From Phyllosticta citribraziliensis (Eukaryota), in NCBI RefSeq assembly GCF_038025025.1, contig NW_027117344.1, forward strand, positions 62,001 to 126,000: 64,000 nt of DNA, written 5' to 3'. Numbering within the stretch: the first letter of the stretch is position 1; every line of letters starts with the position of its first letter. A program made the translations under genes and the position numbers. Below the pieces are notes generated by a model. That model searched no databases. It was not told the origin of the DNA and was given only the letters and a program-made list of their open reading frames with translations. Of this stretch, positions 1-20,758 are shown one piece after another.

Positions 1-102
1 TTTGCTGGAGCGGAAAGATGTATGAGGAGACTGGCTACATGTCAGAAAGAAGCGACCCTCTAGAAATCTCTACTTGCTCTCAGACCAGATGCTCTACATG
101 CA

Positions 103-2094
103 TTACTGCTTCAGAAAAACTGGCATCGAGTCCATGTGACAATCAACGACAATCGTCTGGCCCCCGTCGAATCCAACCGAGTCTTGACCGTTGAACGTCT
201 TCCACTGGAAGCCGAGGGGCAAATAAACTGATCTGCTCTTGACACCCGCATGCAGCACCGGCGCCACAAGCAACTTGCTGCCAAACATGTACTGATCCTC
301 AATCTCCCACGCCGTCTCATCCTCGGGAAAGTCGTAGAACAGGGGCCTGATGATGGGAGTGCCCTTTTCGTGCGCCGCCTTCATCAAATGTCTCGTATAG
401 TCGCGCAGACTTTCCCGAATCTGGAGATACTTCTTGCAAATGGCGTACACCTCTTCGCCGTACGACCACACCTCGTTCGGAGCCCCGGAAAGCATCCATG
501 CGCCACCCGTGTCTCCCTGCCGAGGCTGCTTGGGCTCTCTGTCACCGTGCATGCGCATGACGGGACAAAACGTCGCCCACTGGAACCAGCGCACAAACAA
601 CTCGCGAAACGCCTCGTCGGTCGTGTCGCCGCCGTGGAAGCCGCCAATGTCAGTCGACCACCACGCGATGCCGGCCATGCCCATGTTGAGGCCGGCGGCC
701 AGCTGGCAGCGGAAGCTCTCCCAGCTGCACGCAATGTCGCCGCTCCAGACGAGGGCGCCGTACTTTTGGCTGCCGGCCCACGCGCAGCGCGCCAGATTGA
801 CGATGTCCGTCTGCCCGCTCGCACGCATGCCGTCGTGGAAGGCGCGGGCGTAGTCGCGCGGGTAAATGTTGCCGATCTGCAGGACGGGGCCTTTCCAGTA
901 GCGCCAGATGTCGAAGTCGTAGATGGTGTACTGCGGCTCGGCTTCGTCCAGCCAGAAGATCTTTATGCCCTTGTCCCAGTAGTTTTGCTTGACCTTGTCC
1001 CACAAATAGGCTCCGGCAGCCGGATTCGTAAAGTCGACGTATGGAGGCTGGCCATTGATTTCGTAGGCGGTGCGGAGGCCCTTGTCGGCGCGGATGATGT
1101 AGCCGCGCTCCAGCATCTCGGGGTAGTTCTCGCACGTCTTGTCGACGGTCGGCCAGATGGACACCATGAGCTCGACGTCGAGCTGCTTCAGCTCCTCGAC
1201 CATGGCGGCCGGGTCGGGCCAGTACGCCGGGTCAAACTTCCACTCGCCCTGTTTGGCCCAGTGGAAGAAGTCGACAACAATGACGTCGAGCGGCAGGTCA
1301 CGCCGGCGATGCTCGCGCGCGACCTCGAGCAGCTCCTCTTGCGATTGGTACCGCAGCTTGCATTGCCAAAACCCGAGGCCGTACTCGGGCATCATGGGCG
1401 GCGTGCCCGTAGCAGCGGCGTAGGCCTCGACGATTTCGGCCGGCGAGTCGCCCGCGACGATCCAGTAGTCCAGCGCCTTGGTGCTGAGGGCTTCAAACGA
1501 CATGATATTCTTTCCCAGCACGGCGCGCCCAAGGGACGGGTTGTTCCACAGCAGCCCATAGCCCAGGCTTGATACTGCAAAGGGCACGCTGGCTTGCGAG
1601 TTGCGCTGAGCCAACTCCAGGTCGAGCCCCTTCAGGTCCAGGAACGGCTGCTGGTACTGGCCCATGCCGTAGATCCTCTCATTGCGGTCTTGCGATTCGA
1701 GCCGGTACGTCAGGTGCCAGTCGGTCATGCCCAGGTGCGGCTTGAATTCCCGCGCCTCGACACTGAGGGCGCTGCATTTGGGATCCTGGAGGTCTTTGCG
1801 GTTGCGCTGGTACTCTTCGAGCAGGGTCTTGCCGGCAGCATTGGTGATGACTAGCTTGCCCCGCGAGCCGATGGATGCTTGAATCTTGTCGTTCAAAATG
1901 TGTGCTGACGTCTCGTTGATGCTGATGGCGGGAGCGGCTGCAATGGTCGGGACCTGGTCGAGAGCCCAGTCTTCGGTGGGCATTTGAGCCTGCTTTGTGG
2001 CGCGGATCCGGAGAGCGTTGGCGCCCCAGGGTTCAACCCAGAGCGTCTCGTCGTCGTACTGGTACACGAGCCTGGTTCCGTCGACGACGAACAT
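103..2094 (-). CDS. Glycoside hydrolase family 31 (alpha-glucosidase/alpha-xylosidase-like), intracellular, intronless
   Basis: 663-aa ORF with GH31 motifs GFWQCKLRY, FWLDEAEP (nucleophile region), WSGDI, WSTDIGGF, RMHG, DQYMFG; no signal peptide. Confidence 0.93.
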   Translation of the reverse strand: MFVVDGTRLVYQYDDETLWVEPWGANALRIRATKQAQMPTEDWALDQVPTIAAAPAISINETSAHILNDKIQASIGSRGKLVITNAAGKTLLEEYQRNRKDLQDPKCSALSVEAREFKPHLGMTDWHLTYRLESQDRNERIYGMGQYQQPFLDLKGLDLELAQRNSQASVPFAVSSLGYGLLWNNPSLGRAVLGKNIMSFEALSTKALDYWIVAGDSPAEIVEAYAAATGTPPMMPEYGLGFWQCKLRYQSQEELLEVAREHRRRDLPLDVIVVDFFHWAKQGEWKFDPAYWPDPAAMVEELKQLDVELMVSIWPTVDKTCENYPEMLERGYIIRADKGLRTAYEINGQPPYVDFTNPAAGAYLWDKVKQNYWDKGIKIFWLDEAEPQYTIYDFDIWRYWKGPVLQIGNIYPRDYARAFHDGMRASGQTDIVNLARCAWAGSQKYGALVWSGDIACSWESFRCQLAAGLNMGMAGIAWWSTDIGGFHGGDTTDEAFRELFVRWFQWATFCPVMRMHGDREPKQPRQGDTGGAWMLSGAPNEVWSYGEEVYAICKKYLQIRESLRDYTRHLMKAAHEKGTPIIRPLFYDFPEDETAWEIEDQYMFGSKLLVAPVLHAGVKSRSVYLPLGFQWKTFNGQDSVGFDGGQTIVVDCHMDSMPVFLKQ

Positions 2095-2755
2095 GTTGCG
2101 CTGACTGATGATCCTGACTGTTGTGAGTGTCGTCTTATTTGAACTGACTTATACAGAGCCTGCTATATTTTAAAAAACTGGTGAAGTCGTGATATTCGTC
2201 GAAACCGTATTCTCTGTTAAAACCGAGGTACAAACAATACTTGATTGTGCCGTCGCGAGAGACAACGGATCCAATCGACACCAGGGACCGCGAGGGGTCA
2301 ACGATAGTCTTCATCCGCAAACTTTGGGAGTGGGGAACTTGTGCGGCTTACCTTGGTCAATCTGAACTCTTTGGGTGGTGTTGATTTCAACAAGAAAACA
2401 ACGCGGCATTCAAACCAAAAGAGACGAGCCATACATATGCTTTATGAAAAGCACGCCTCTGCGTCAACCTTTGCAATTGGATGTGCGACCAGAGTCAAGG
2501 TAGGGTGCCCATGAGTGCTTCCAAAAGTACCGGGCCATCGACCCAATCAGTCGTTTCTGATACCCTGTTTCTTCATGGGTTTCCAGCGCTGCGGGGCCAA
2601 CCTTAAAGACTACAAGTCGTTGTCTTTAGCCGGATTACCCGGCCGTTTTGCCATCCTTTGAGGGAAAAGTCTAAATAGTCGACAGGAGAGCGTTGATGCG
2701 GTCGAAATGAGGATATCAGCTTGCTGCTCACTGGGCTTTTCGCACATCATCCACA

Positions 2756-4418
2756 ATGGACAAGACCAAAATCATCCACAATGTCGGCGAGGTCACTCGC
2801 GGAGGGGACCCTCGCTCCAAGAGGGAAATGCTGCTCAAGGCTCAGGAAGCCTCTCAATTGGAACACGCTCAAACTCTGTGGCAGGCCATCAAGAGCCATC
2901 GCAAGGCAGTCATTTGGTCAATGCTCGTCAGCACTGCAATCATCATGGAAAGCTATGACACTTCACTTGTCGGTGCGCTCTTCGCTCAGCCGGCCTTTTC
3001 CAAGCGGTATGGTCGGTACTTCAACCACAAGAAAGGATACCAGATCAGTGGCCCGTGGCAAATCGGCTTGGGCAATGCTACGACATGCGGGACCATCATT
3101 GGCGCATTCTGCAATGGCTATTTCACCGACCGATTCGGGTACCGGAAGGTCTTGCTGGCGAATTTGATCCTGATATGTGGATTCATCTTTCTTCCATTCT
3201 TCGCTCAGTCCATTGAAATGCTGCTCGTTGCCGAAATCCTTTGCGGTATTCCTTGGGGCGTATTTGCGACGCTGGCTCCGGCTTACGCGGCCGAGGTGTG
3301 TCCTCTCATTCTCAGAGGCTACCTCACCGTGTACGTCAACATGTGCTGGGGCATTGGACACTTGATCGCGTCGGGCGTGTTGTCGAGATACTCCAACAGC
3401 AAGTCCCAGTGGGCGTACAGGCAAGTTTCCCAAACCGTTTTCTCAGTGACGCTGACCGTGTAGGATTCCGTTCGCTCTCCAATGGGGCTGGCCTGTTCCT
3501 CTCTTCATAATTCTCTTCTTCGCACCAGAGTCTCCGTGGTGGCTTGTGCGACGAAACAAGGTCTCCGAAGCAGAGAAATCGCTCTCCCGGTTGTCGTATA
3601 ATCGCACACCCGACGAAATATCGTCCAATGTGGCACTCATGATCCACACGGAGATGATTGAGAAAGAAATCGAGTCTGGCAGCACGTACATTGACTGCTT
3701 CAGAGGCATCGACCTACGACGCACTGAGATTGTGTGCCTAACCTTTGCATGCCAGGCTTTCAGCGGTTCGGCTCTTGGAGGCAACCCGGCGTACTTTTTC
3801 AAGCAGGCTGGCCTTGGAACGAGCTTCAGCTTCAAACTCAGCATCGGAGGCCACGGCATGGCATGCGCCGGAACCATTCTCAGCTGGTTCATCATGAGCT
3901 ACCGGGGAAGACGCGAGATTTACGTCACGGGCCTCTTGTGCCTGGCATCAATCATGCTGACGGTCGGCTTCGTCGAGGTCGGCACCGAAAACAAGGCCGG
4001 GAAGTTTGGAATGGGTGGACTGGTCGTGGGATGGCTCTTTACCTACTACTTGAGTATCGGACCAATCTGCTACGCCATCATCAGCGAAACGTCGTCGGCA
4101 AGGTTGCGCACAAAGTCGGTTTGCCTGGCTCGGATCGCTTACTACATTGTAAGCATTGGCTGCGCGACCGCCGAGCCGTACATGGTCAATCCGACGGAAT
4201 TCAATCTGAAGGGCAAGACGGCGTTTGTTTGGGCGTCGACAGGTTTCTGCGCCGCAATTTGGGCATACTTTCGGCTGCCAGAGACGAGAGACCGGACGTA
4301 CGAGGAGTTGGACATCATGTTTGCTCGGAAACTGTCGGCCAGGAAGTTTGCCAAGTACGAGGTGGATGCGTACGAGTATGAGGTGGAAAAATTGACGAGA
4401 ATGCATGTAGAGGTGTAG
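2756..4418 (+). CDS. MFS sugar porter, maltose/alpha-glucoside permease-like; 2 exons, GC-AG intron 3421-3463
   Basis: Motifs IIMESYD, DRFGYRK, YAAEVCP..LRGYLT, PESPWWL, RRTEI, LPETRDRTYEELD; splicing 3421-3463 restores WAYRIPFALQW. Confidence 0.92.
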
Positions 4419-4603
4419 TTTGTAGCAAGGAACCTAGGTAGTGAATGTCAGGTTATCGGATGACGTTGTTCGGATGCACGTTCATCCTCCCGGCGCAGGA
4501 ACCGCGCGGCTGCTACCCGACTGGCGTCTGTCTGCGTCAACCCCAACTTCAATGACGGCGGCAGCTGGCGACAACCTGAACCCTTCAGCCTACCCACTGC
4601 AGC

Positions 4604-5850
4604 ATGCCGACTGGCACATATCCCAAAGTCCCCAGGTCCATCAATGTTCCTCCCAGCAACTCGCAACACTGGAACCCCCGCCCCCGCACCTTTCGCCGTA
4701 GCCGCATCCTCGCCTTCGTCGCCCTCCTCCTCCTGGTCCTCGTCTGGTACTCCCATGGCCCGACTGTCGAGGTGAAGAAGAAGAACAAGCTGCGCAATGG
4801 CTTGTCTCCTGATGGAGTCGATTGGTCTCGCTACGCCTACAGCCAGTACGCCACCAATGGCGCCTACCTCTGCAACTCCATCATGGCGTTTGACGCCCTC
4901 GAGAAGCTCGGAAGCAAGGCCGACCGAATACTCTTTTATCCAGACAATTGGGACTTGGAGGTGACGGCCAGCGATGATCGGGACAGCCAATTGTTGGTCA
5001 TGGCGCGGGACAACTATCGGGTCAAGCTCATCCCGATGCACATGCAGAGTCTCAAGGCCAAGGGTAAGGAGGAGGACGAGTGGGAAGAGACGTGGGACTT
5101 TTCCATCAACAAGTTCCTCGCCTGGAATCAGACGCAGTACGAGCGAGTCATCCATTTCGACTCCGACGTCACTCTCTTCCAGCACATGGACGACCTCTTC
5201 TTCCTTCCCGAGACGCCCGTCGCCATGCCGCGAGCCTACTGGGAGCTGCCCAAGACGAAGAAACTGACGTCAGTCTTGGTCGTCCTGAAGCCGTCAAACA
5301 CCGAATACGAAGCGCTTATGCACGCATCCTATACGTCCGAGGGCCAGGTGCACCGATTCGACATGGAGATCTTAAACGATCGATACCAAGACTCGGTCAT
5401 GGTCCTGCCGCATCGCGGCTCGATTCTCTTGACGGGCGAGCTGCGCAACGAAGATCACTCCAACTACCACGGCAACGACTACGACTATTGGGACGTTGAC
5501 GAAGCGCTCGCCGAAACGCGATTTGTCCACTTTTCCGACTGGCCGCTGCCCAAGCCCTGGATCATGTGGCCAAACAATTTGCTTCCAGAGGTCTTGCCGA
5601 AATGCAAAATCAAGCCAGGAACGCCCGATGAGGCCGGCTGCAGGGACCGAGAAGTCTGGAGGGCATTGTACGACGACTTTAGGACGAGGCGAAAGGTGAC
5701 TTTCTCACCAAATTTGAGATGTGCATAGTTGACGTAATTCAGGACATTTGTCGACTCCTCAGCGTCCCCGCGCCGCAATGGCCGCCGCCGCCAAAGATGA
5801 CCAAACCGAAGCCCAAGACGGACGACAAGAAGGACAAAAAAGGTCCTTGA
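4604..5850 (+). CDS. Glycosyltransferase family 8, Gnt1-like type II membrane protein; intron 5696-5742
   Basis: N-terminal TM helix, YAYSQYAT..YLCNS, DSD (DxD) motif, HFSDWPLPKPW; spliced last exon DICRLLSVPAPQWP ends at TGA 5848-5850. Confidence 0.85.
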
Positions 5851-7738
5851 GCTTTTCTTCCATCGCCGAAATGTGGAAACACATCGGCAAGCATTCTCCA
5901 GCCTCCATCGAACTTGAGAAGTGCAAAACAGGCCGTCATCGTCGCATATTCTAGAAGTAGGCCATTTCCTGCCGACATGGGCGACCGATCCTACCACTTG
6001 CATCAGCATCGACATGGTGCACCCATCCAACAGCACCTTTGCTTGATGGCGAGCGTCGGCGGCTCTCCCTTGTACCAAGATGAAGAAGCCGCCATCCGAT
6101 CTTTCACGACATGGAGTCATTGCAACTGAGCTTAACCTCATAGCCACCGTGCATTTATCTGCTGACGTTGAGAAAGGTACGCAGAGAGGAGAGACAAGCG
6201 TCCATTGCTGTGCATTTCAACATGGTTGAGACGGAGCTACGGAGTCATTCGAGAAGAGCGCATGAAAGTGACTGCATAGATATACGCACGTTTGTATATA
6301 CATGGATGGGAATAGGGACATGAACATATTGTTGTAGTATATCTCTCATAGCTGCTCCTCCTACGTATATTACAGCGCATGCAGTGGGCTTCTGCTACAT
6401 AAACAATAGAAAGCATCGCAGTGTGCACACCATCTTCTCCCTTTCGCTTTCCTGATCAACATATTCTTTCCTTTCTCTCCCGTTCATCCTCCTCCTTGCA
6501 CTTCCCCATCCACCAATGCCTCATCTAATGATTGACCCCTTGCGTTGCGTTGCGTCGCCTCGACACCTACCGCTTCGCCTCTTCTCACCCGTGACCGCGC
6601 ACGCGAGCACGTCTCCTTACCTCGCTACTCCATGTCCATCAAAATCAGCCATTGTTTATTTACGCAGCGCGTCTCCATTAGCGGGCAGGAGGCCTCACAA
6701 AGGCAGGCGGAGAGAAAGGGATAGAGGCGCGAGAGGAAAGGAAGGGGGTGGGTGAGGTTACTGCGCCTGCTGCTTTTCTACAAATACAGGTTAATTCGAC
6801 ACAGAGGATCAATTATCTTCATTGTGAACAATGAACAAATGTTTGTTTAGTTTGTATCTGGATTGGGTACGGTACCCGCCACCACTCGTGCTCCTGTGAC
6901 TGACCCCTCGATGCGCCGCGCCCCGCCACCACTGCGCTATACTGCGCCACCAACGCCAATGATAACAACAACAAAAACAGTAGATGGCCCAACGGAGAAT
7001 CAGACCAAAAACAAATAAATAAACGGAAGGATGGTAAATGGGCAGGTGGCAAGACAGAGCCCACAGCCCGGTGTGACGCTAGAACGCCACTTACCTATGC
7101 AAAGAGAGCGAGCAAAGGAGAGAGAAAGAGCGCACCCAAGGAGGAGTATTATGAGAAAAGCGGAAATAGATTGGTTTGAAAAGAGGATTTCCAGACGTCT
7201 GCACAAGGAGAGGTAGATAGATGGATAGATGGATGCGAAGGTTGTAGTAGTGTCGTTGAGCTAATGCACATGTCTTTCTGTCTGTATAACTCCTGCAAAA
7301 CATCGTTGTTGATGATGATGATGACGACGCTAGCTACGAAGCAGACGAGCAGACGACAAGGCGCAAGACGAAGCAAACTACGGCAATAGACAGCGCGCCA
7401 GATGCTCAATGCAACAACGTATGACAGACCAGCAAGCCAAGGCGAGATGCGATAAAGTGAGTTAGAAAGAATTGCGCGAGCAGCGACGATGTAGTCATTG
7501 TGAGACTGGAGAGAAAGAAGCAAGGCAAGGCAAAGCAACAAGACGATAACGACCAACAAAGGGAATTATGCAGTATGGATGTGAGTTTGTGGATTGATGC
7601 ATGGATGCAAGGTGATTGATCAAGGACGCCGAGCGCTCGCTATACAGGTACCAATGGGTGGGCCAGGGAGTCTAGTCGATGCCAATTAAGGATGGTGGTC
7701 GAATGTACAGACAGTCAGCTGGCTGGTAGGAGACGACA

Positions 7739-10309
7739 TCATGCCTTCAGCCTCCGCTCCTCGCACCGGACGCAAACCGGGTCTTTGGTCGCGCCACGGA
7801 GAAAGTAGCGGCCGTCGTCGAATGGGGCAGAGCACTCCTATACGAGGTCAGCGGATGTTGGTTGGATTCGAGAGAGAACATACCGTGCAGACGAAGCAGT
7901 CCGGATGCCACTCGGCGCCCAGAGCCTTGAGCACCGTGTCGGTGACGGGCTTGCGGCACTTTTTGCACTTGGTCGAGTAGCGATTGGTGTGGCAGTCGAC
8001 GCACCAAGCGTAGCCGTCCTTTTCGACAAACGGGGTCGACGAATCAAAAGGCTATTAACGTCAGCACAACTCTCACATCGAAAGGAAAAACTCACGTCTC
8101 CACATTGCGCGCAGAAAAAGTGCCCAACATGCCACTCGGCCCCGCACGCCACAACCACCTCGCCCTCAATTGGCGTCTTGCAGCTCTTGCACCGCGGGCT
8201 GAACATTTCGTGGTAGTCGAGATGACAGTAGAACCGCAGCCCCGCATCTCCATCCTCCTCCGCGCTCGGCCACTCGACGGGCACGTCGTAGCCATCCATC
8301 CGCGCCTCGATGCGCTCCACACGCTCGGCACGCTTGGCATCTGGCTCCGGGTAAAAGGCTACACATTCGAGCGCCTCGCCGCAGTGGTAGCAAAGGAAGC
8401 ATTGGGGGTGAAAGCGAGCGCCGGCCGCGCTGACAATGCGGCCAGCAATGGGCTGGGAGCACGCTTCGCAGAGGGCTGTCGTTCGCACGCTGGTTGGGGT
8501 GCGGTGGACTGGAGCGGTGTTGGCGTGGCGGGGGAGGGGGCGACCCTTGGCGGTGGCGGGGTTCGGCAGGGGGCGAGAACTCGAGGAGGCGTTGATGGTC
8601 GGAAGTGGCCGTTGGGCAGGTTTGTCGCTGGTGACGTTGACGACTTGGGTTGGAGAGTCGTCGGGGAGGTTAATGGTTGGGAGCGGCCGTCGGGCAGGCT
8701 GATCGTCGGTGACGTTGATTATTGGCGTCGAAGGAGAGTCGGAGACATTAATCGATGGAATGGGAGATTCGTCGGGAAAATTGATTACAGGAATAGTTTT
8801 GGAGAAGGGAACGTCAGGCATGTTGATCGTAGGCACCACTGGTGCAGAAATAGACTTGGTCGGGCTCGGAGGATAAGCCTTTGGCTCCACAGGCTCAGGA
8901 AGTTTTCCCTCTTTGAGTTCAATCTCTTTGGGCTTGTAGTCTTTTTGAAAGCTGACAATAGGCCTGCCCGGACTATCGCTGACCATGCTGGGAGTTGGAA
9001 GCTTGGAGCTGCGGTCCTTGAGCCTCATGCTGGTTGCTGCTCGAATGTCGTCTCCGCGAATTTCTTTGCCATCTTTTGGTTCCTCGACAGGCGCTTCATT
9101 TTCCGACTTGGGCGGAGGAGTCGCGGCAGGTGATTCTTCGTTGGACGTGTATCCCGCATTGCGCGACTGCGAGGGCGGGTTGCGATGGATCTCGAAGCGA
9201 TCCCACAGCTTCCGTTGATCACTCATTGGTGGATCGGTGTTGCTGCGTCCAAGATTGTCCCTGGCCCTAGAAAAGGGGTTTCTCCGGGTGTGGGTTGGAA
9301 GTTTCGACGGCTTTTCGTCCTTCGACGAAACCTCTTCTGGCTCCTCGTAAATCTTGTCGTTGGGATTCTTGAATAGGCTCCCACTCGTCTTTCTTCGCGA
9401 ACCACTGCTGGTGCGCCGTCTCGTCGGAGGCGGTATGTTGAAGGAGACGTGGCCCTTGGAAATCGACCCGTAGCTCTTCTTGGACTCTCGAGGCGGTTCG
9501 GGCTGGGGTTCTGGTTCTGGGATCTTCTGGCTCTTGACGGAAGACGACTTTGATCCGCCGCTACTTATCCTACTGTCACCGCTGGAATGATGCGATGCCG
9601 TGTCATAGCTCTGGGCTCGTGCGTGGCTGCCCTTGCGCAAGTGGGCCGTGTAGGGATATGGAACATTGGGGTTTTGGTGTTTCCAAACGAGCTCGGCAGC
9701 CTCGTCGCGAGCGTCGTCGTAGACCTGTTGCTCATCCATGTCCTCGAGGGCACGGCGCAGCGAGTGAGCCTCTTGGCGCTCCATCCAACGCATGCCGCTT
9801 TCCCTGTAAGATGCCTTTTCCGTTGTAGAGCGAGACGAGCGGACCGACATGGCGGACGACGCCCTCTCAATTGTGGCGGGATTGGGTTCGATGCACGAGT
9901 TGCGGGCGGCATCGTCCTTGGGGTCGCGGGCGAGCGGACGGCCCAAACTCGAGGCAGCGCGATGAAAGGGATTCCGACGAGTGGCAGAGTTGAGCGACAT
10001 GTCGCGATGTGAGAGGGCGCTCTGGCAGCGGGCGGGTTGCAAAGAGGACGAGCTGGGGACGGGGCTGGGGTTGGACTGGTCGCGCAGCGAGGTGGCTGGG
10101 AGAGGCCGCCGACCGACAGCGACAGCGACAGCGACAGGGACGGGGCGTGCAGGGCGGTTGGAGCGAATGTCGCGCAGATAGCTGCCTGCATGAAATCAGC
10201 AGACGAAATCGCAGTCGATCAAGATTCACTCACCGACCTGCTCCTTGGACATGTACGTCGGGCCCGGGATGGCGCTGCCCTTGTCTTTGGAGCGGGCGCG
10301 GTGCAGCAT
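7739..10309 (-). CDS. LIM-domain (paxillin-like) protein, Pro-rich N-terminus, C-terminal LIM zinc fingers; 4 exons
   Basis: Exon 1 MLHRARSKD...YMSKEQV spliced to GSYLRDIRSNRP; LIM motifs CEAC..FHPQCFLCYHC, CKSC..WHVGHFFCAQC; last exon ECSAPFDDGRYF..CVRCEERRLKA*. Confidence 0.85.
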
Positions 10310-11000
10310 GATGACGGCGAGCCTGAGCCTGAGCCTTGGCCGGAATGCTCAGTCTCAGTAATTATAGCGAGCGAATGGTAGGAATGCAAAGGAGAGGAGG
10401 ATGAAATGTATGTATGACTACGGGCGCCAAGATGAGAGGATGATGGTGTTGTGGTAGGGGTCGCTCGAGCAACGCCAACACAAGCTCGACGTGTCCGCCG
10501 GCCCGGCCCTTGACCTTGTCGCAGCCGCAGGGCTGACTATCACACTCATCGTCCAAGATGACTTGTTGCGTCCTTGCGTTTGCTCCACTGTTGCTGCTGT
10601 CAGGAGGCGGTGTCGTTTGTCAAATGCCGCTGCAAGGTACGGGGACCAGTCTGGCGTCGCTCAGACGAACCGTGGGACGCTGCCCCTGGATAGATAACAC
10701 ACATCCCTACCCCTAGGGCTCGACAGCGTTCCCCGGATTTGCCTCGACCACTTGCGTCACTGATCATCTCTTCCGTATTCGTTCCGACGACCGCCTTCGC
10801 TTGCGGACGACCAGTGGGGCCCATGCGATCTCCCCGCCGTCACGGTAAAGACGGCACTCCTCCCCACGCTCAAAATTGGCGGCCAAGTGCTGGACCCCGT
10901 CAGACTTGACATCCACCATCCGACAAGATGACTAAAGACTCCCACTCCTGGCTCGGCCAGCTCACCATGGCCTCCTCTTCGCAACGGCCCTCTGTCAGTC

Positions 11001-12493
11001 ATGGCCGCCCGTCAAGAAAAGCCTGCCGAGGCCACTATCGCTCCGTCTGAAGTCCCATCACTTCCTTCGAATCACTCCAACAATGCCGATCCGCCTGAAT
11101 CAGTTGTCGAGCCAGTTCAAGAACCACCCAATGGAGGCTACGGTTGGATCTGCTGCATAGCCACTTTCTGGATAAACGCACATACGTGGGGAATCAACAG
11201 CGTCAGTTTTCATCACTTTCGCCCAACACTGCTAACTCTCTTCAGAGTTATGGCATCTTCCTCGCCCACTACCTGAGGCAAAATACTTTTCCTGGGGCCA
11301 CGCGCCTCGCCTTTGCCCTCGTCGGCGGCCTATCCATCTCGCAGGCTTTGTTCGTCTCTCCCCTCGCCACCGCGACCACCCGGCGCTTTGGCACGCGCGT
11401 GACGCTTCTTGTTGGCGTCTTCTTCGAGACCTTGGCTCTGATTTGCGCCTCGTTTGCGAGTCAGATATGGCACCTATTCTTGACTCAAGGGGTGTGCTTT
11501 GGCTGGGGCATGGGATTTCTCTTCGTGGGCAGCGTCGGCGTCGTGCCGCAGTGGTTCACTACGCGACGCAGCTTCGCCAACGGCATTGCAGCATCGGGAT
11601 CAGGGGTGGGCGGGCTGACGTATTCGCTGGCGACCAACACCATGATTGAGCGCATCGGGCTGGGCTGGGCGTTTCGCGTCTTGGGCATCTGCGCGTTCTC
11701 GGTCAACACCGTCTGCGCGCTGGTCATCAAGGACCGCAACAAGCACATTGGCAGCTCGCAGCTGGCCTTTGACTACCGCCTGTTCAAGCGGCCCGAGTTT
11801 CTGCTGCTCCTGGCTTTTGGCTTTCTCAGCATGCTCGGCTACATTGTGCTCCTCTTCTCCCTCCCCAACTACGCCACGTCAATCGGTCTCTCCGCGCACC
11901 AGGGCTCCGTCGTCGGCGCCATGCTCAACCTGGGACAGGCGCTGGGCCGCTCGCCCATCGGATACTTTAGTGATGTTATTGGCCGTCTCAACATGGCTGC
12001 CAGTATGACGCTACTCGTCGCCGTCTTTTCGTTTGCCATTTGGATCCCGGCAAAGAGCTACGGCGTGCTACTTCTTTTCGCGCTTCTCTGTGGCACCGTC
12101 GCCGGTACGTATTGGGCCGTCGTCGCCCCCGTCACCACCGAAGCTGTCGGCCTGGCCACACTGCCTGCTGCCCTCTCCATCACCTGGCTTGTACTCGTCC
12201 TGCCCACCACCTTTTCCGAAGCCATCGCTCTACAAATCACCGCTTCCAACGGCGGCAATTACCTCGGCGCTCAGCTCTTTACCGCATTCATGTACCTCGG
12301 TGCAGCCGCCGTGATGTGGATGTTGCGCGCGTGGAAGATTGGTCAACTGGAACGAACTGCTACAGCCGGGGACAACCGGATCGAAGCGGTAGACCCTGTG
12401 ACTGAGCAGCCAAAAAGTCTGGAGAAGAATGGCAAAGTGCTGAAGCCTGGGCGGAGCTTCGTCGAGAGGTTGTATGCGCGAGCAAGAGTGTAG
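11001..12493 (+). CDS. MFS monocarboxylate-porter family transporter (Mch-like); intron 11202-11245
   Basis: PPNGGYGW, spliced TWGINS|SYGIFL, PQWFTTRRSFANGIAASGSG, multiple TM segments. Confidence 0.9.
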
Positions 12494-13970
12494 CGATCTC
12501 TGCATCGACAGGCGTTGGTATGTGGGTACGGCATAGCATTTGCACATATTGCATCTCGGTAAATAAAATACAGCGTGTTTATACACAGCACAAAGGACCT
12601 ACTTCATTCAAACTCCGAATTGCATCTCTTCAAATGCTAGTCAGCGAAAAGCGTTCGAGAAATCACATCCTACTCAAAAAAGTCTCCTCCGAAACATCCT
12701 CACCATCCCCCTGTCCTACACTCATCCTGGTGCTTATGTTGAGCACCAATGAGATTCATTGTTGATCAACATCAAGTGGTCGTCAAGAACAAAGGGAGGA
12801 CAGCAAGTCCGAGAGCGACGCGCGACAGGCTCTCCCGAAAGAAAAAAAGAAAAAAGTAAAACAGAAGTGCGTCATGTGGGACCACGGCGCCGCAAAGACC
12901 AACCAGTTTCTGTGGTGAGTTGATCTTCGTCCCCCTTTCAAAGCTGCGTGTTGAGTGATGAGTGAGAGAACAAGCAGAATGAGCGGAGCTTTTATACCCT
13001 CCCTACCCTTGACTGGGAGCAGCTGGCCACGATCACAAGCTGCTAGGCACCTGCTTCTTCCAGGCAGCAGACCATGTGCTAGCTCAGCCTGACTGACGCG
13101 GCGCTGGAGCCCCGGCATGTGTGAAAAAGGAGTCAGCTGCTGACGGATGCAGAGGTATAAAAGCTTTCCCTTGCCGGTGCTCTCAATCTTTGTACCGCAC
13201 CATGCGAGTTCTGGGTCCACAAGGAAGAAATCCAAATGACCACTGACTGTGCGCTTGCCTGTCGCCCCGGAGATTCCGGACCAAAGTTGTGCTACTTGGG
13301 TTGAGAAGCCATTCCCGACGAGAAAGACATGCAAGAAAGATTCTTCGGTCGTGCACTGCAACGAGACGCAATGGTGGTGGTTATGATTGAGTGTGTAATG
13401 ACAGCGAGCGCCACTTAAAGTTGAGAAAGACTGGAGACATTTCACTGCGCGAGAAATGAATAGTGGAAGAGGATTCTGGCCCGGGGCAGCCAAAAAAGTC
13501 GTACACAACCCGAGATATGACACAAGAGTGTCCGAATTAGCACCCCGTTCTTTTCTCTTGTAACACGGGTGGACTGTTGCCATGACCCTTGCAATGCAAA
13601 CAGTGGGAATGTATTTATAATTCATCGATAGCCTTAGCCGTAGCCGTAGCGGCCGGGCGGCGGAGTTCCTTTCACGAGCTCAGGGGCATCAGGTTCTGGC
13701 GGATACTACATCACACGTCACGCTCAACTGGCCGCAGCCCATGGCGCGATTTCACGGTGCAAGAATGCAAGACTCAGCATCTCGTACCACTGCCATCGTC
13801 CTTCAAGCAGCGACCAAGTCCACCCAATTCTCCCCTCATCCGCCCGTCCCCATCGCGCCACCCCTTACTCACTACAACCACGGAACAAGGCCTCGACACG
13901 GACACCCCGCTACCACTCAAAAGCCCCGCCATCAAAATAAAGGCAAAAAGGAAAAGGGCAAAAGGAGCTC

Positions 13971-14053
13971 CAGATCGGCCAGGACTTGAACCTGGGACTT
14001 GCCGTGGATATGATGTTTAACCATGACATGCGTTACCACTACGCCACCGATCC
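13971..14053 (-). tRNA. Atypical tRNA-like gene (isotype undetermined; possibly pseudo-tRNA)
   Basis: Acceptor GGATCGG/CCGATCT, D-arm GCGT-AGTGGTA-ACGC (A box), T-arm CCAGG-TTCAAGT-CCTGG (B box), downstream T-tracts; anticodon arm non-canonical. Confidence 0.75.
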
Positions 14054-15485
14054 ATAAACGTTTTTGTGGTGCGCTGGATAGTGGGGTAGGGGTTGCGACG
14101 GATTATATACTGATTTTTGGCTTCGCTGCTTTGTGGGGTCTGCCTTTTGTCTGCACACAGAAGAAGCCAATATATTTTGCTGCGGATTCGCTGCGGAAAT
14201 TTTCGAGAAACTTTCTCGCCCTGTGACACTTGATACACAAAACGCTCTGAAGCATGTGCAAGTTGCCGTCAGACTACCGTGCGAGACTCGTCGTCTCGTG
14301 AGCGCGCCTGGATGCGCCCGCGGAGTATAAATTGCGTCGTCTTTTTAGCAGCGAGGAAGTACGGTACGACTCCCTCCAAGCATATCGACAACAGCAACTC
14401 AAATATGAGCAATTGACTCTTTGCTGGCATGGTGAATTGCAGAATCTCACTTCATGTTCTTCTTTGCGCTGTTGGGATCTTATTTCTACAGTCTCCGGCA
14501 AAAGGCGCGTAAATCTAAAGATCCTTCAACAGCGATGATGCTGAATCGCACCACCAATCGTCCACGATGAGACCGATTTTCGCCCAAAGACAGCAAAAAT
14601 GCTGCGACGCTCTTGGTCTCAGGGGCTTTTGGCGCGAGAGTAAATCGAAAGAAGAAAACCAAAGACAGACAAGTCACTTCTTCTCTTTCCAGATTGTTGC
14701 ACACCACAAGTCCGTCGTCTTCTCCCTATGATAAGGCCGCAGACTCGCGGGAGGGATGTCGCTTGGAAGAGTGAGAAATGGTCTGGGTTTATATACCCCT
14801 GAGATCTTGAAACTCCGCATGTGCCGACATGTCAGCGAGCTTCTGATAGATCACAAGCACAACGCTCGGAGCTATATGTCCCATGACGCGGTCCTAGCTC
14901 TAGTAGCTCTTGTACTTCTCTTCCGTTATAAAAGCAGGTCCGTCACTTCCACTCAACTCATCAACAACGCAATTAAATCGGCAGAAATACCCAAAAAAGG
15001 ACTAGATGACTGTCTCTCTTCCTTTAGGGCATGCTTCAATCGTCTTTCCTTTTCACTTTGTCCTGCGGTGGTTCCGTGACGCTCTCCAAGACCGACTGTT
15101 TTTGATTTGTCAAACTTGGCTTTTGCTTTCCTTTGAACGCTCACCATCATCATTAAATGACGGAGTCAATACCCAATTGCTTAAGATGAAGTCCGCCGCC
15201 GTCATCATTCAAGGGGGTTCAGTGCTTGGTTTATTCTGGATCTCATGCCACAGCGTCCAGCGGCTATGTAGGAAACCCAACAAAAAACAAACAGTTTTGG
15301 AGGTGTCTATGTCCTTTATTCTTGAGGATGGGATGCACCTCACTGATGATGGAACGGGGAAAGCTGAATCGAAGGAGAGAGACGGTTTTATACCTCGCGG
15401 AGCCGTCAAAAAAGCCCGGGCCAAGCCTCAAGAATCAGCTGCCAGCTCAGTAGAGCGAAAACGGAAGCATTTGAGTGTGCGCTAC

Positions 15486-15487
15486 GG

Positions 15488-15523
<36 letters not shown>

Positions 15524-15524
15524 C
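15486..15524 (+). repeat. (GGCA)n tetranucleotide microsatellite inside one bidirectional promoter module
   Basis: About 9-10 tandem GGCA units read directly. Confidence 0.9.
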
Positions 15525-18500
15525 GTCTTTCTTGGTATATAAAATGGTCGCTTCTGCCCTCCCCAGGGCTCATCATTGAAGATGCACCTTTCGTCAAGAG
15601 CGACATTCCTCGGCAACTGATACTGCTGTCCCGATCGAGCTCGAGAAAATTACTTTGTTTCTGTCCGCGTCCCCTGAGAGACTTTGAGTCCGCAGCTAGT
15701 GAATTTGATCTGGGCGACCGAAATCAAATTGCTCTCCATCTTTGACTTATGGTGCTGAGTAAAGTCAGGGGTAGATTGCAATGATCCGCAATATTATCAC
15801 TTTTCCAATGCGTTCCTTAAAAGTTGAAACGCTGGCAACGGCGGCGAAACAGTGATCGAATCATCTGGGATTTGTCTATGTGAACAACTCAGCCAAACAG
15901 TTGACCAGGTTTTGAAGAGGTGACTTTTCGCACTCAAAGCGAACTTGTTTGGCAATGAGTGAGCAACCCCAGAGTTGAGAGCGCTTTTATACGCGGACGA
16001 AGTAGGTCACAAGCAAGAGAGCTGCAAGAGGAATCAGATGTCAGGAGCCAAAAGGGGCAGGGTAGGTCACACCGACTTGTCTCTGACGCCGAAGCCGCAG
16101 CTCGCTGCGCTTGTGATCGTGGCCCTAGGGGGTATAAAACCCGGTCCTTTCGCTCTGTCAAAGGAGTCGTCAGACAAGCTCCAGCGCATCTTCAGCCGCA
16201 ACAAATGGTAGCTGAAAGACTGTGCTTGTTTCCGATGTCAAAGAGCATAGCACTTTGTTTGGCTGTTTCCGGCTGCGGAAATGACGGACTTTGGCCTTCT
16301 TTTGAAGAGCATAGGATTTTCAGGCGGCCTAGATTTCCTGTTTATCATTATTCCTTCTTGGAGGTCTTCATCATCAGAACAAAGAGCCTGTGACCTCAAT
16401 GGCTCAACAAAGAGAAAAGAAACAACCCCACAAGAAAGCAAGCCAACCACCCACCCCAGCAAACCAAAAGAAAAAAGACAAAGTACGCTGAAAATCAAGC
16501 CAAGCACTCCACCCAGTAGGGTCCTCTCGGACATCTCTTTCAGCAAGGTCGCGGACTGCACTGCGAAGGAAATGCCAGAGCTCAGAAGAATGCGCGTCTT
16601 ATACTCCGCCGCTGCACCTGCTCACGTGCCAAACAATGCCTCTCGACAAATGAGGGGAATTCTCGAGCACCAAGTCCCAGGAAGCACGTGCGTCGCTGTG
16701 CACATGGCCCCCTTACACGTCAACATGTCGAGTGCACTGGCGATATCGCTCGCCCACGGATGCACGACGCACTACAAAAGCCGCCGCGCCGCCCACAGTT
16801 CTGTCGTTAGAAAGCTTCTTCTGACAAGCGGAGAAGAACCTTCCAGCCTACCACTCTACTTGTGCGTTTGCGGTGAGTGGGTGGCACAGTGTGGTGATGG
16901 TTGGGTGTTGGGTTGCGGGGTTTTGGCGAGATGTGGGTAGGATGTAGGAATGGTGGTGAGGGATGAGAAATGTTGATGGGGATGAGGAATATGGTGTTGT
17001 GATGGTGAGGGATGGAAGTGCGGAGAAATGTAGAAGCGTTGTGTTGTCAGTAAGCGGCGGATTCAGGGGTACCCGGTGGACCGAGCGACAGAGAGGCTTC
17101 CCAGTACTTTATCTCGTTCGACCCAAGCACCAGAGTCTCATCTTCTTTTGTTGACAGCCATGGCCCATAAAGCGCAAGAACAGCGAGCGAGAAGCGCGCT
17201 CTTTATACCCCCACCTCCGCCTTTGCCGCCGCCTCCGGCGTCACTGACCTCGCCAGCCTCGGCGCACATGAGTTCCACTGCACGCCCGCATCTACCCAGC
17301 GCGCTTGTGACAGCTCTCTAGTTCTAGGAGTATAAAACCGTCACTCGACCCTCGCTTTTGACTCCTACACACCACCGAGTCCGCAGCAAGCAAACGCAGC
17401 AAGACGAAGGACCACTGCTTACTGTTGCGATGCGTTTTTTGCGCAATGAATGTTACTTGTGGCGTCTCTGCGTGGGACATGAGGACATGGCTGCGTTTGC
17501 ATCTTAAGAGGTGATGGAGATGTTGTGTATGGTGCTGCGGTATGTCGGCGTCGCGTGATGGCGAGGAAAAGGGACGAGAATTCCGTTCAGGGGTAAGTGA
17601 TTCCAGAGAGAAGTATTTCTCCGCAACAAATTGTCCGCAGCTCGACAACGAAGAAGAAAAATAATAGAAAGATGATGATGCGATGCAACGACATGGCATA
17701 GCGATGTAAATCAACCAGCTTTTAAGTCGGTTCAGCGAGCTCTCAGGCACAACGTACGGACAAAAACAACAAGAACGAAGCGAAGCAAAGCAAAGTCAGT
17801 CGTTTACTTCGCCGAAGGTCTCCCCCACCAGTGTAATGGAGACAACACTTCAGAGCCTGCAGGATTGCAGCTCGCTTGTCCACCACAATCGCTGGAGGAA
17901 AGAGAGAGATTTTATACCCTCGCAACGGAACCACATGCTAAAAAGCTCTGACCACCAGCAAGCCAGCACCACCTGCTTGTAGCCCAGGCTTGTGACTCGA
18001 ATGCTGCACAGCCACGGCAGGCAACATCTAGATTCTAGACAGCAAGCTCGTGACGTCTGACAACTGACCCCATCAGCATGTGGCTGGCCCCAGCTTCTGC
18101 CCATGCTTCTCCCGCTCTCACTCCCTAGGGTATAAAACCTCCGCTCTCCCTCCCCTTTCACAGCGCGACAAGCAGGTGGAGGCGAGCTGAGCAGCCCTCA
18201 GATCTTCCAATCGAACTTGCCGCTCCATCTGTCACCATGTCACTTTCTGCCGGAACGGATTTCTCAGTTTCAACACACTTTTCCGCTCGTTTGTCCGCTC
18301 CGTCAGGGGCCGCGTAGAGCAGAGGAGAAGACGTGTTATCCCAAGCAGTTGTGAATGAGAGCGGCAGAGTGAAGTAATGCAGCGTCGCAGCGCCACGGCA
18401 CCACGCTGCAAGTCCGCGTATCTGGGAAGCGCGAGACTGCCAATGGGGGAGTTGAGATACGCCGTGGCGCGCTCCAAACAGTGGACGAGGAATGCGACCA

Positions 18501-19692
18501 CGCGGCACAGCGCACAAGTGGCCCAACGGCATAGCGGCGGTGCAGGCGTCTTGCTTTGCTCTGCGGAGGAGTGGGATGAGGAGGAAGAAGGAGGAGGGGA
18601 AAGGTGCGAGAGGCGCGGGTTTTATACCGTACCTCTCTCTGCTCTGTCAAACCACATGACCGACATTACTGCCAGCCAGCACCGCCAACCACTCCAACCC
18701 ACTCCACTCCACTCCACTCCGCCCCGACGCTCTCCGACTCTCCGACCAAAAAAAGACAAGAACCAGGCCCACCCCACATGTTCCCGGCCGGCGGCCGGCT
18801 AGCTAGATAGGTTGGTCAATGTAGTGTTGAATCAGGTACCGTACACGCCGGGTTAGCCAGCGAAACAGACGACAGGCGCTAACCGCAAGAGGCAATATCG
18901 CGGCGAAGGGGAACGACGAAGCCGAACCGAAGCGAACGCCAGGAAAGCGAATCAAGGCAAATGCAATGCAAGTCGGCGAATCATCGCAAATGCCGCGGCT
19001 ATTATGTGCGCGTACGCATGTACTGCTACAAGCCAGACAGACAGGGGGGCCGGAGACTCCAGGATGAAGCTTAGCAAGAGTGCGAGAAGGAAAGAGAAAA
19101 GGAAACACGTAAGTTAGACAAGGTGTGTATGTATAGATAGAGGTATGCATGTCATGCAGCAAGAGTCGTATATGTACAGCTCTAGAGTCTATGATGCAGA
19201 CGGTTTCTAGGTGGATAGGTAGGTGAGGAGAAGGGGCCGAGGAAAGATGAGAAAGCCAACGCAGGCAGCCGGAGAGAGAGAAAGCGTCCATCCATGCCGC
19301 GCGCATTCGACCAACAGGGCAGGGGGTCGATCTTCAGACACAAGGAGATGACCGCGACCCTTAGTTTGATCCCCTGCGCGCTCGGCGACGAGATGCGGGT
19401 GCTCAGGTAATGCAAGTCGGAAGCTGTCCAGGCAGTCGAGGGGAGGTAGGAAGGTAGGAAAGCGGTCTGCCAACCGCACGTCGCACACGGGGTGAGCGTC
19501 GGTCAGCCCAGCAGGAAAGCCTTCATGCGCCCTCATCTCCGTGCCGTGCGGCGCCCCCGAAAAGCATGCCAGCCGCACGGCAGCCGTTGCTTTTTCGTGT
19601 GCAACGCCTCGTCGCCCCCCAAGAATAGCTCTCGACGGCCCGTGCTGGACGGCAGAAGAAGTGGGCAGATGCAAATACGGGCCGCACGCGCT

Positions 19693-20758
19693 CTACAGTT
19701 CCTTTTTCGTGGCGGAGCCGTTGAGCTGGGAGCGCTGCTCGCGCCGCACGACGAGCGGCATGGTGAAGAAGTTGGGCCAGTGCAGCTCGTAGTCGTCCTG
19801 CTTGTCGTTCAGGCAGTGTCTGAGCCAGATGCCCCAGACAATGTAAAAGTAGGCGCCGGTGCCCGTCATGAGGTGCCTAGCAAAGTTTCGTGTCAGCACG
19901 GCATGGGAAAAAGAAGCAAAGCCGCCAGCAAGCTGTTATTGGACGAGATTACTCACCACCAACCATGGCCTTCGAGAAGGAGGCCCCACGGCAGACCAAT
20001 GTCTCTGCGCCACCGCCGCAGGTTGCCGCAGAACTCGTTGTCTAGGGTCCAGATGGCGAAGCCGCCCAGAAAGATGCCCAACCCACAAGCAACCATTTTC
20101 CACATTGTGTGGAGGATGTGGAGATCGCGCCTGTCGACGCGCAGCTTCTCGGAGCTGTCGTCCGGCTGCTCCCTGGCCTTGAGCGTCGGCCGCAGGCGCA
20201 CCTCCATGACGTACATGCTCCGGAAGAGGACAACGGCGGTCAACAAAGCGTACATGTTTTGGTGAAAGGCCGGGTCTTGGAGGTAGTGGTAGTAGCCGGT
20301 GATGAAGGCGGCGAGGGCGACGAGGAAGAGGCCGAGCACCACGGCGTAGCGGCGCGACCTGCCGTAGGAAAAGGTGGCGTAAAACATGAGGCAGGTGGTG
20401 TAGATCATGGACAGCTCGTCGACCAGCTGCATGGGGTACTTGAGGGTTGCGTGGAAGAGGAACGAGCCGGTGCCGACCAACAGGTAGCCGGCAAAAGTAA
20501 CGAGGAAGATGCGGTCATGGTCGTTGGCCAGGCAGTTGGCGATGCCCTTGGCGGCCAGGTACATGAACAGGACGTTGGTCAGGGTGTTGACAATCTCGGC
20601 GCTGTAGATGGTGGCGTAGTAATCCTGCAGAGGTGAGCGGTGGGCGGGGATTGGGGCATTGAGCATACCTCTTCGCACCAATTGAGGGTCGAGGTGACGG
20701 GAGACCAGTAGCCGTCACCAGCAGGTGGGTAGGGCACGGAAGGGAGCCATTCGGGCAT
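19693..20758 (-). CDS. Alkaline (phyto)ceramidase, Ypc1/Ydc1 family; 3 exons
   Basis: Exon 1 MPEWLP..GYWSPVTSTLNWCEE; GSFLFHATL, QLVDELSM, LLEGHGW|WHLMTG (CREST-family His motifs). Confidence 0.92.

Follow-up and report, generated by a model that had tools for sequence, protein, structure and literature searches.

What kind of element is formed when unique stretches of DNA of similar length alternate with recurring boundaries, and what are those boundaries? The question is raised by a 64,000-nucleotide stretch of the genome of Phyllosticta citribraziliensis (NCBI RefSeq assembly GCF_038025025.1, contig NW_027117344.1, positions 62,001 to 126,000 of the forward strand), referred to here as the window and marked as fungal by a GC content of about 0.57 and by spliceosomal introns. 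An original prediction had drawn attention to eight mutually unrelated cassettes between positions 13163 and 18619. It proposed either that their sequence is irrelevant and only length matters, as in decoy or priming double-stranded RNA (dsRNA) or nucleosome-quantised spacing, or that they are guides derived from mycoviruses, transposons, self genes or host genes. The array that they form is real and strongly non-random. Judged by their sequence, the cassette boundaries are promoters and not repeats, and we consider the chances to be somewhat better than even that the array consists of co-regulated, lineage-specific bidirectional RNA polymerase II promoters between which unique non-coding cassettes are transcribed convergently.

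A cluster of oriented TATA boxes

The array stretches over 5.6 kb that, apart from one transfer RNA (tRNA) gene, carry no genes, and it is hosted by a gene-free interval of 7 kb between the 3' ends of two flanking genes (Table 1). All 11 copies of the heptamer TATAAAA in the window fall inside the array, whereas shuffles of the window yielded 0.96 +/- 0.94 copies and at most four. The looser pattern KTATAWAW has 16 matches in the window, 15 of which are inside. When three degenerate boxes are counted the total is 18, and box direction flips at 16 of the 17 steps along the array (P=3.5e-4). The central part is strikingly periodic, with minus-strand boxes spaced at 597, 599, 612 and 605 bp and plus-strand boxes at 601, 611 and 595 bp.

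The control set comprised 80 fungal loci from metagenomes, 770,059 bases in total, in the surroundings of genes for ceramidase relatives that are at most 69% identical. They contain 36 TATAAAA heptamers, a density of 0.047 per kb as against about 2 per kb in the array. The TATA cluster is absent from all 80 of these loci, whose ceramidase relatives belong to more distant fungi, and the MFS transporter gene that adjoins the array is syntenic in none of the 80. The best reading is that the array is lineage-specific.

The approximately 58 kb of the window outside the array (1-12989 and 18627-64000), with some twenty genes, contain no TATAAAA, and the ordinary gene promoters of the window appear to lack a canonical TATA box.

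Divergent promoter modules

The boxes form eight outward-facing pairs, 122-216 bp apart, six of which are defined from sequence alone. The spacers between the cassettes (159, 216, 131, 145, 141, 170, 122 and 214 bp; GC content 0.52-0.66) are most readily read as divergent two-promoter modules, and each cassette as a segment flanked by convergent promoters. The core RGGG-TATAAAA-C, G-rich from -4 to -1 and with C at +8, is common to the 18 boxes and is followed from +7 to +40 by pyrimidine-rich, G-poor sequence (G 0.12-0.19).

Particular words recur upstream of the boxes. The motif GCTTGTGA is present in five of the eight spacers and in none of nine cassettes, with eight copies across the whole window, and CACATG/CATGTG is present in six of the eight spacers and likewise in none of the nine cassettes. 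These words lie 10-45 nt before a box and are oriented toward it. A composite consisting of an upstream element, 5-45 nt of intervening sequence and a TATA box occurs seven times in the window, always in the array and aimed at the nearest box; the same composite has five occurrences in the 770 kb of control loci.

Alignment of the 18 promoter halves gave a mean column identity of 41%, and their invariant part is the TATA core only. Halves of different modules carry matches of 16-20 nt in inverted orientation (I6, I14), which suggests that the modules are related by duplication, and the array probably grew in this way. A perfect 16-nt inverted match, GGCCACGATCACAAGC/GCTTGTGATCGTGGCC, is shared by two modules at 13025-13040 and 16109-16124, in both cases just upstream of a TATA box; it could represent a composite site for a factor, or else have been left by the duplication of modules. 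Module S4 is mostly filled by a (GGCA)n microsatellite of about 13 units (15480-15534), and it is the sole module with a canonical TATAAAA on both sides yet without the shared upstream motifs. There is no rightward box beyond S9, and the array thus ends in a half module; just beyond this last TATA box, at 18690-18725, lie a CCACT pentamer repeat and two copies of CCACATG.

Transcription of the array

RNA cover was taken from contigs of two sequencing runs, X1 and X2, which cover 0.72 and 0.49 of the region, respectively. Contigs of both skip an 80-nt intron of the ceramidase gene (19876-19955, GT..AG on the minus strand), and both runs therefore represent RNA; runs X3 and X4 provided short, low-depth pieces only. 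In the pieces listed for these four runs, the letters of the array are identical to those of the window and the differences reported are confined to the multi-copy tRNA.

Of the 19 contig ends listed for the array, five fall on the correct side of a TATA box and 40-56 nt inside it, where 0.50 would be expected (P=5e-5). These start-like ends, 44-53 nt from the first T of the box, belong to four boxes, namely the two of module S1 and the two of module S5. Leftward ends occur at 12948 (X1) and 12949 (X2), from the box at 12996, and at 15939, from the box at 15991; rightward ends occur at 13209, from the box at 13156, and at 16177, from the box at 16133. Since contigs end on both sides of S1 and S5, both modules fire in both directions. 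The end at 16177 is directly abutted by letters that we take to be library adapter, which indicates that a molecule ended there. From their starts, contigs extend over 387 nt (15939 to 15553), 690 nt (13209 to 13898) and more than 900 nt (from 16177). The second of these stops at the onset of an A-rich tract, which is the T-tract of the leftward tRNA unit.

The possibility that the minus-strand boxes are poly(A) signals of a same-strand gene array was ruled out by the mirrored RNA ends and by the flanks of the boxes: RNA ends 47-52 nt before the minus-strand boxes mirror those 44-53 nt after the plus-strand boxes, and the flanking sequences of the two kinds of box are likewise mirror images of each other.

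Cassettes share a layout but not a sequence

The eight cassettes lie where the original prediction had placed them to within one base, the intervals of cassettes 2 and 6 having been corrected (Table 1), and each carries an inward plus-strand TATA box at its left and an inward minus-strand box at its right. They are 421-572 bp long (mean 466, standard deviation 43), and the tight constraint on length that had been proposed applies to five of the eight (440-457 bp) but not to the other three (421, 572 and 482 bp). Most are, as had been claimed, less GC-rich than their surroundings, with GC contents of 0.46-0.61 and seven of nine measured at 0.54 or below, against approximately 0.58-0.61 in the neighbouring genes. 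Their mutual unrelatedness was borne out. Compared with the whole window (blastn with word size 7, and tblastx) they yielded no match longer than 37 nt, the best (E 5e-4) being an inverted repeat internal to the extra left-hand interval, and comparison in register revealed no residual likeness of nucleotides or of purine/pyrimidine pattern (identity 0.556 as against 0.549 in controls).

What the cassettes have in common is their layout. Counted from each box, the units are A-rich at +60 to +80 (A 0.36) and T-rich and A-poor at +120 to +160 (T 0.36-0.38, A 0.11-0.13). Beyond +40, 13 of the 18 units have their first run of at least four Ts at +104 to +169. For a first run between +100 and +175, the count of 13 units compares with 4.47 +/- 1.83 for random anchors, and none of 2000 trials reached 13. 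Seen from the opposite promoter, the T-tracts become A-rich ones, about 290-350 nt downstream of the box of that promoter. Given this shared arrangement of pyrimidine-rich start, A-rich segment and T-run, the earlier suggestion that sequence is irrelevant is too strong.

The cassettes are apparently non-coding-looking DNA, in agreement with the earlier report that they give no recognisable protein. At third codon positions, the GC content (GC3) of nine candidate open reading frames (ORFs) is 0.45-0.66, as compared with 0.72 for 11 known genes taken together (0.58-0.84 for individual genes), and a codon score was negative for all nine candidates and positive for all 11 genes. At a level of 0.001, no Pfam family, those of transposons and viruses among them, matched the ten longest frames or any of the 110 frames of at least 40 amino acids (aa), and a single sub-threshold match (E 0.0078) is about what chance provides for 110 queries. 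Two ORFs, of 98 and 280 aa, were searched among 5.8 billion proteins and matched only themselves, and the corresponding frame of 298 aa matched itself and one weak stretch of 29 residues among 1.84 billion representatives; as a control, the ceramidase, 100% identical to a protein recorded for P. citribraziliensis, retrieved 1367 relatives, among them proteins of congeners that are 94% and 87% identical. The picture of non-coding-looking bodies of regular length therefore holds, with convergent promoters on either side, at least four of which are in use according to the RNA contigs.

Degraded tandem duplicates, altered by repeat-induced point mutation (RIP), were considered as an origin of the cassettes and rejected; the purine/pyrimidine values given above reveal no transition-only relation. 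The RIP indices (TpA/ApT 0.38-0.72; (CpA+TpG)/(ApC+GpT) 1.18-1.68) show no trace of RIP by the usual thresholds. No dyad symmetry or hairpins were detected in the cassettes (dyad z from -2.0 to +1.7), and local reverse-complement z values lay between -1.1 and +0.7 in the nine cassettes; the uncertain interval on the left had +2.8. An apparent hint of dyads, in which ends of the same cassette ranked top, proved to be a variance artefact. Degenerate G/T-rich repeats resembling TGGTGGTGAGGGATG occur 49-105 nt apart at 16889-17023 in cassette 6. The TATA boxes on either side of this cassette are the most degenerate two, and it may, for that reason, be a decaying unit.

Interpretation of the array

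On the reading that we favour, nine related bidirectional RNA polymerase II promoters would be placed about 600 bp apart, and the cassettes would be the transcribed bodies between them. Each module would combine oriented upstream elements (GCTTGTGA, CATGTGG or CACGTG) with an outward TATA box at each edge, such that each cassette would be read inward from both ends, from starts 44-53 nt past the first T of the box. All 18 boxes would be expected to fire, and the shared upstream elements may co-regulate the entire array. The geometry entails overlapping sense and antisense RNA, provided that the two promoters of a cassette are active in the same cells; the two inward transcripts would then form sense/antisense pairs, and the outcome could be dsRNA or transcriptional interference. 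The T-runs, which are A-runs on the incoming strand, may limit transcript length, whether by terminating sense transcription early or by serving the incoming strand as poly(A) signals. Moreover, the spacing of approximately 160 + 450 bp could represent one nucleosome-free module and three nucleosomes, and the nucleosome-quantised spacing suggested earlier is thus compatible with the dimensions of modules and cassettes and with their central period of 595-612 bp. An extension of this reading has the array as a natural multi-unit dsRNA factory, with its products diced to small RNAs whose targets would lie elsewhere, in genes of the fungus itself, in mycoviruses or in its citrus host, and with cassettes replaced over evolution while scaffold and spacing are kept; this we consider unlikely.

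Several observations weigh against convergent transcription of non-coding cassettes. No single cassette shows both inward starts, and the contigs carry no strand, so that any overlap between sense and antisense RNA is a prediction. Contigs also cross modules and opposing boxes (16177-19875 in X1; 16505-17086 and 17522-18708 in X2); transcripts are therefore not confined to cassettes, and a few long read-through RNAs could explain a large part of the cover. For cassettes 2-4, cover is sparse in X1 and absent from X2. X2 is also without cover at 17087-17521; such gaps in cover prove nothing. Open frames constitute a further difficulty. They are in modest excess over whole-region shuffles, and the first ATG opens a frame of at least 98 aa (98-266) in five of the 18 units. 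A minus-strand stop-free frame of 298 codons is of a length reached in none of 300 whole-region shuffles (P 0.003-0.02 in local shuffles); it lacks codon bias, has no relative and is left unexplained.

These frames provide the main argument for a cluster of young or orphan micro-protein genes, in which short messenger RNAs (mRNAs) would encode small, often hydrophobic peptides and the T-rich stretch would specify a signal peptide or membrane helix. The first-ATG ORFs in question have 266, 178, 135, 124 and 98 aa, the last with two hydrophobic stretches; good ATG contexts are present, such as CACCATG at 13202 and 18237; eight frames reach at least 130 codons where 3.5 are expected from whole-region shuffles (P=0.007); and the 98-aa and 280-aa frames are recorded as predicted proteins. 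Most of the excess is lost, however, once local composition is kept (P 0.04-0.14), the sense strand of each unit being A-poor and hence having fewer stop codons. In the remaining 13 units the opening frame has 2-62 aa, the long frames pass through TATA boxes and modules, and no CaaX pheromone-like peptide was found. Together with the absence of GC3 bias, the negative codon scores, the Pfam result and the failure of both searched ORFs to find a relative in a database that includes congeneric proteomes, this makes micro-proteins improbable. The proposal that the cassettes are captured or target-derived guides, stored between promoters and converted via dsRNA to small interfering RNAs, draws on the fact that they are unique, mutually unrelated and of similar length, lie between convergent promoters and belong to a transcribed region. 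No cassette has a match elsewhere in the window, however, and domains of transposons or viruses are absent from the 110 open frames. The boundaries consist of promoter halves at the low level of identity described above, with no repeat-type boundary hinting at insertion, and a common positional layout is unexpected of freshly captured foreign DNA. Capture from elsewhere is unsupported and, in a weak test comprising the window and Pfam, appears highly improbable.

Two further explanations concern the class of transcript and the role of the DNA itself. The combination of an upstream element and a TATA box resembles external promoters of RNA polymerase III, and each TATA box could on this view direct a small RNA of 60-125 nt ending at a T-run. 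The tRNA unit of the array has just this plan, with a TATA box, the gene from +55 of the minus-strand box at 14109 and T-runs from +146, in the same layout as the other units, and the position of the first T-run in 13 of the 18 units fits as well. The RNA contigs fit less well: those from 16177 and 15939 continue past the first T4 run of their units (at +167 in the unit at 16133 and +169 in the unit at 15991), and the start-like ends lie farther from the box than the approximately 30 nt of such promoters. A run of at least five Ts falls within +100 to +175 in only seven of the 18 units, and no exact B box was found outside the tRNA gene. The tRNA was the only match in an Rfam scan, a scan for C/D-box small nucleolar RNAs gave two matches, neither inside the expected RNA of any unit, and 13 putative short RNAs folded no better than shuffles (z from +0.72 to -2.19, one below -2). 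Small RNA genes of this type are consequently very unlikely, to a degree only just short of that for captured guides. A chromatin-level or DNA-level element is a little less improbable, although still quite unlikely. It would present phased, nucleosome-free, TBP-bound sites with three nucleosomes between them, and act as a boundary or factor sink near the tRNA gene with its transcripts as by-products. The very regular central period, the module size of 122-216 bp, the five cassettes of 440-457 bp, the tRNA gene within the array and the lack of visible constraint on cassette sequences would all agree with this. On the other hand, the promoters are complete and in use, and both the orientation of the upstream elements and the T-runs downstream indicate that selection acts on the transcription units themselves.

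Relation to known systems

The closest natural analogue may be convergent transcription at the dicer-independent small interfering RNA (disiRNA) loci of Neurospora crassa, which are described as combining convergent transcription with dynamic DNA methylation (PMC3764098). As in our case, the organism is a filamentous ascomycete, and sense and antisense transcription by RNA polymerase II over the same DNA has been proposed (PMC3764098). The likeness would extend to the outcome, small RNAs or chromatin marks, which for our array is a prediction. The disiRNA loci are ordinary gene pairs or promoters scattered genome-wide, whereas here we have a dedicated gene-free array with nine TATA modules and unique 450-bp bodies.

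In form, the array appears closest to engineered opposing-promoter RNA interference (RNAi) constructs, in which an insert of a few hundred bp stands between strong inward-facing promoters and is transcribed on both strands. The vectors pSilent-Dual1 and L4440 are of this dual-promoter type. Convergent-promoter transgenes have also been reported in Fusarium oxysporum (PMC3733888). Such constructs are artificial single units with an insert that copies a chosen target, whereas the array has eight to ten natural tandem units with no known targets.

Other systems share individual features. In the 21U-RNA (Piwi-interacting RNA) clusters of Caenorhabditis elegans, each small RNA has its own upstream mini-promoter, and there, too, many autonomous units with a common promoter motif and unique sequences occur on both strands. 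They number in the thousands, however, with precursors of about 26-30 nt and a different motif, as opposed to 450-bp units paired convergently; moreover, fungi are not known to have a Piwi pathway. Arrays of clustered regularly interspaced short palindromic repeats (CRISPR) and integron cassettes also alternate unique segments of similar length with recurring boundary elements. Here, in a eukaryote, the boundaries are loosely similar inverted promoter halves and not direct repeats or recombination sites, and the array is therefore neither CRISPR-like nor integron-like; no acquisition machinery was seen and no foreign match found within the scope of the window and Pfam. Finally, at yeast bidirectional promoters each edge of a single nucleosome-free region has its own pre-initiation complex, an arrangement to which the divergent TATA boxes and the RNA ends on both sides of S1 and S5 can be compared. 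Ordinary bidirectional promoters are single and serve genes, in contrast to nine related copies with a 600-bp period, none of which serves a recognisable gene.

Although bidirectional promoters and convergent transcription are each well known, the same cannot be said of a dedicated gene-free array, and nothing comparable is described in the titles and abstracts that we consulted on convergent or opposing promoters, on TATA boxes, on small RNAs of fungi and on the genomics of Phyllosticta. Should the inward transcripts pair, the array would constitute a natural multi-cassette source of dsRNA in a plant-associated fungus, which would be relevant to the production of endogenous or cross-kingdom small RNAs by fungi. 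Otherwise, it would provide a natural system for studying module duplication, constant length with free sequence, and non-interference of packed promoters. In either case, it yields a compact consensus of a strong TATA-type promoter together with a candidate upstream factor site.

Feature coordinates and neighbouring genes

Table 1. Features of the array and its surroundings in the window.
Feature	Position	Strand	Remarks
Whole array	12990-18626		18 TATA boxes; nine divergent modules; eight to ten cassettes
MFS transporter gene, left neighbour	frame 11099-12493, stop 12490-12492	+	3' end toward array
Possible leftmost cassette, less certain	12567-12989		423 bp; read leftward from minus-strand box at 12996 toward MFS 3' end; left boundary merely a TAAATAAAATA stretch
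298-codon stop-free frame	12783-13679	-	280 aa from first ATG; spans cassette 1, S1 and leftmost interval
Module S1	12990-13162		Minus-strand box 12990-12996, plus-strand box 13156-13162; GCTTGTGA on minus strand at 13033-13040, two CATGTG
Cassette 1	13163-13612		450 bp, GC 0.50
TATAAAT box	13613-13619	-	Part of near-palindromic TATTTATAAT
Extra cassette-like interval	13620-14102		483 bp; contains tRNA gene
tRNA gene, Thr(GGT)	13970-14054	-	ARAGORN; 85 nt
Module S2	14103-14332		TATATAA (-) 14103-14109; TATAAAT (+) 14326-14332
Cassette 2	14333-14788		456 bp, GC 0.48
Module S3	14789-14933		TATATAA (-) 14789-14795; TATAAAA (+) 14927-14933; CACATG, CATGTC, TCACAAGC
Cassette 3	14934-15385		452 bp, GC 0.46
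Module S4	15386-15544		TATAAAA (-) 15386-15392; TATAAAA (+) 15538-15544
Cassette 4	15545-15984		440 bp, GC 0.48
Module S5	15985-16139		TATAAAA (-) 15985-15991; TATAAAA (+) 16133-16139; each box faced by one GCTTGTGA
Cassette 5	16140-16596		457 bp, GC 0.49
98-aa ORF	16241-16534	-	In cassette 5; two-helix-like, two hydrophobic stretches
Module S6	16597-16780		TATAAGA (-) and TACAAAAG (+); two CACGTG, one CACATG
Degenerate box TATAAGA	16597-16603	-	Boundary of cassette 5 and module S6
Degenerate box TACAAAAG	16773-16780	+	Boundary of module S6 and cassette 6
Cassette 6	16781-17201		421 bp, GC 0.54; degenerate boxes on both sides
Module S7	17201-17337		GTATAAAG (-); TATAAAA (+) 17331-17337, preceded by GCTTGTGA
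Degenerate box GTATAAAG	17201-17208	-	Boundary of cassette 6 and module S7
Cassette 7	17338-17909		572 bp, GC 0.50
Module S8	17910-18137		TATAAAA (-) 17910-17916; TATAAAA (+) 18131-18137; CATGTGG before both boxes, also GCTTGTGA
Cassette 8	18138-18619		482 bp, GC 0.61
Half-module S9	18620-18800	-	TATAAAA (-) 18620-18626; CATGTGG upstream
Alkaline ceramidase gene, right neighbour	stop near 19690	-	3' end toward array

RNA cover extends between the array and the flanking genes. RNA cover continues for about 455 nt beyond the stop codon of the MFS transporter gene (12493-12948), up to the start-like end at 12948/12949, and the leftward promoter at 12996 may produce antisense RNA over the 3' end of that gene. 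On the other side, the ceramidase contig of X2 begins at 18956, with adapter letters directly adjoining, which indicates that the 3' untranslated region runs for about 730 nt toward the array (18956-19690). In X1 the ceramidase and array transcripts are joined in one contig, and the rightmost array transcripts and the ceramidase mRNA therefore probably overlap tail to tail.

The tRNA gene probably carries an intron, given its length. Among the RNA contigs there are many variant copies of it with different flanks and at very high depth, which places it in a multi-copy family, and one X2 contig ends inside the gene at 14002 with adapter letters directly next to it.

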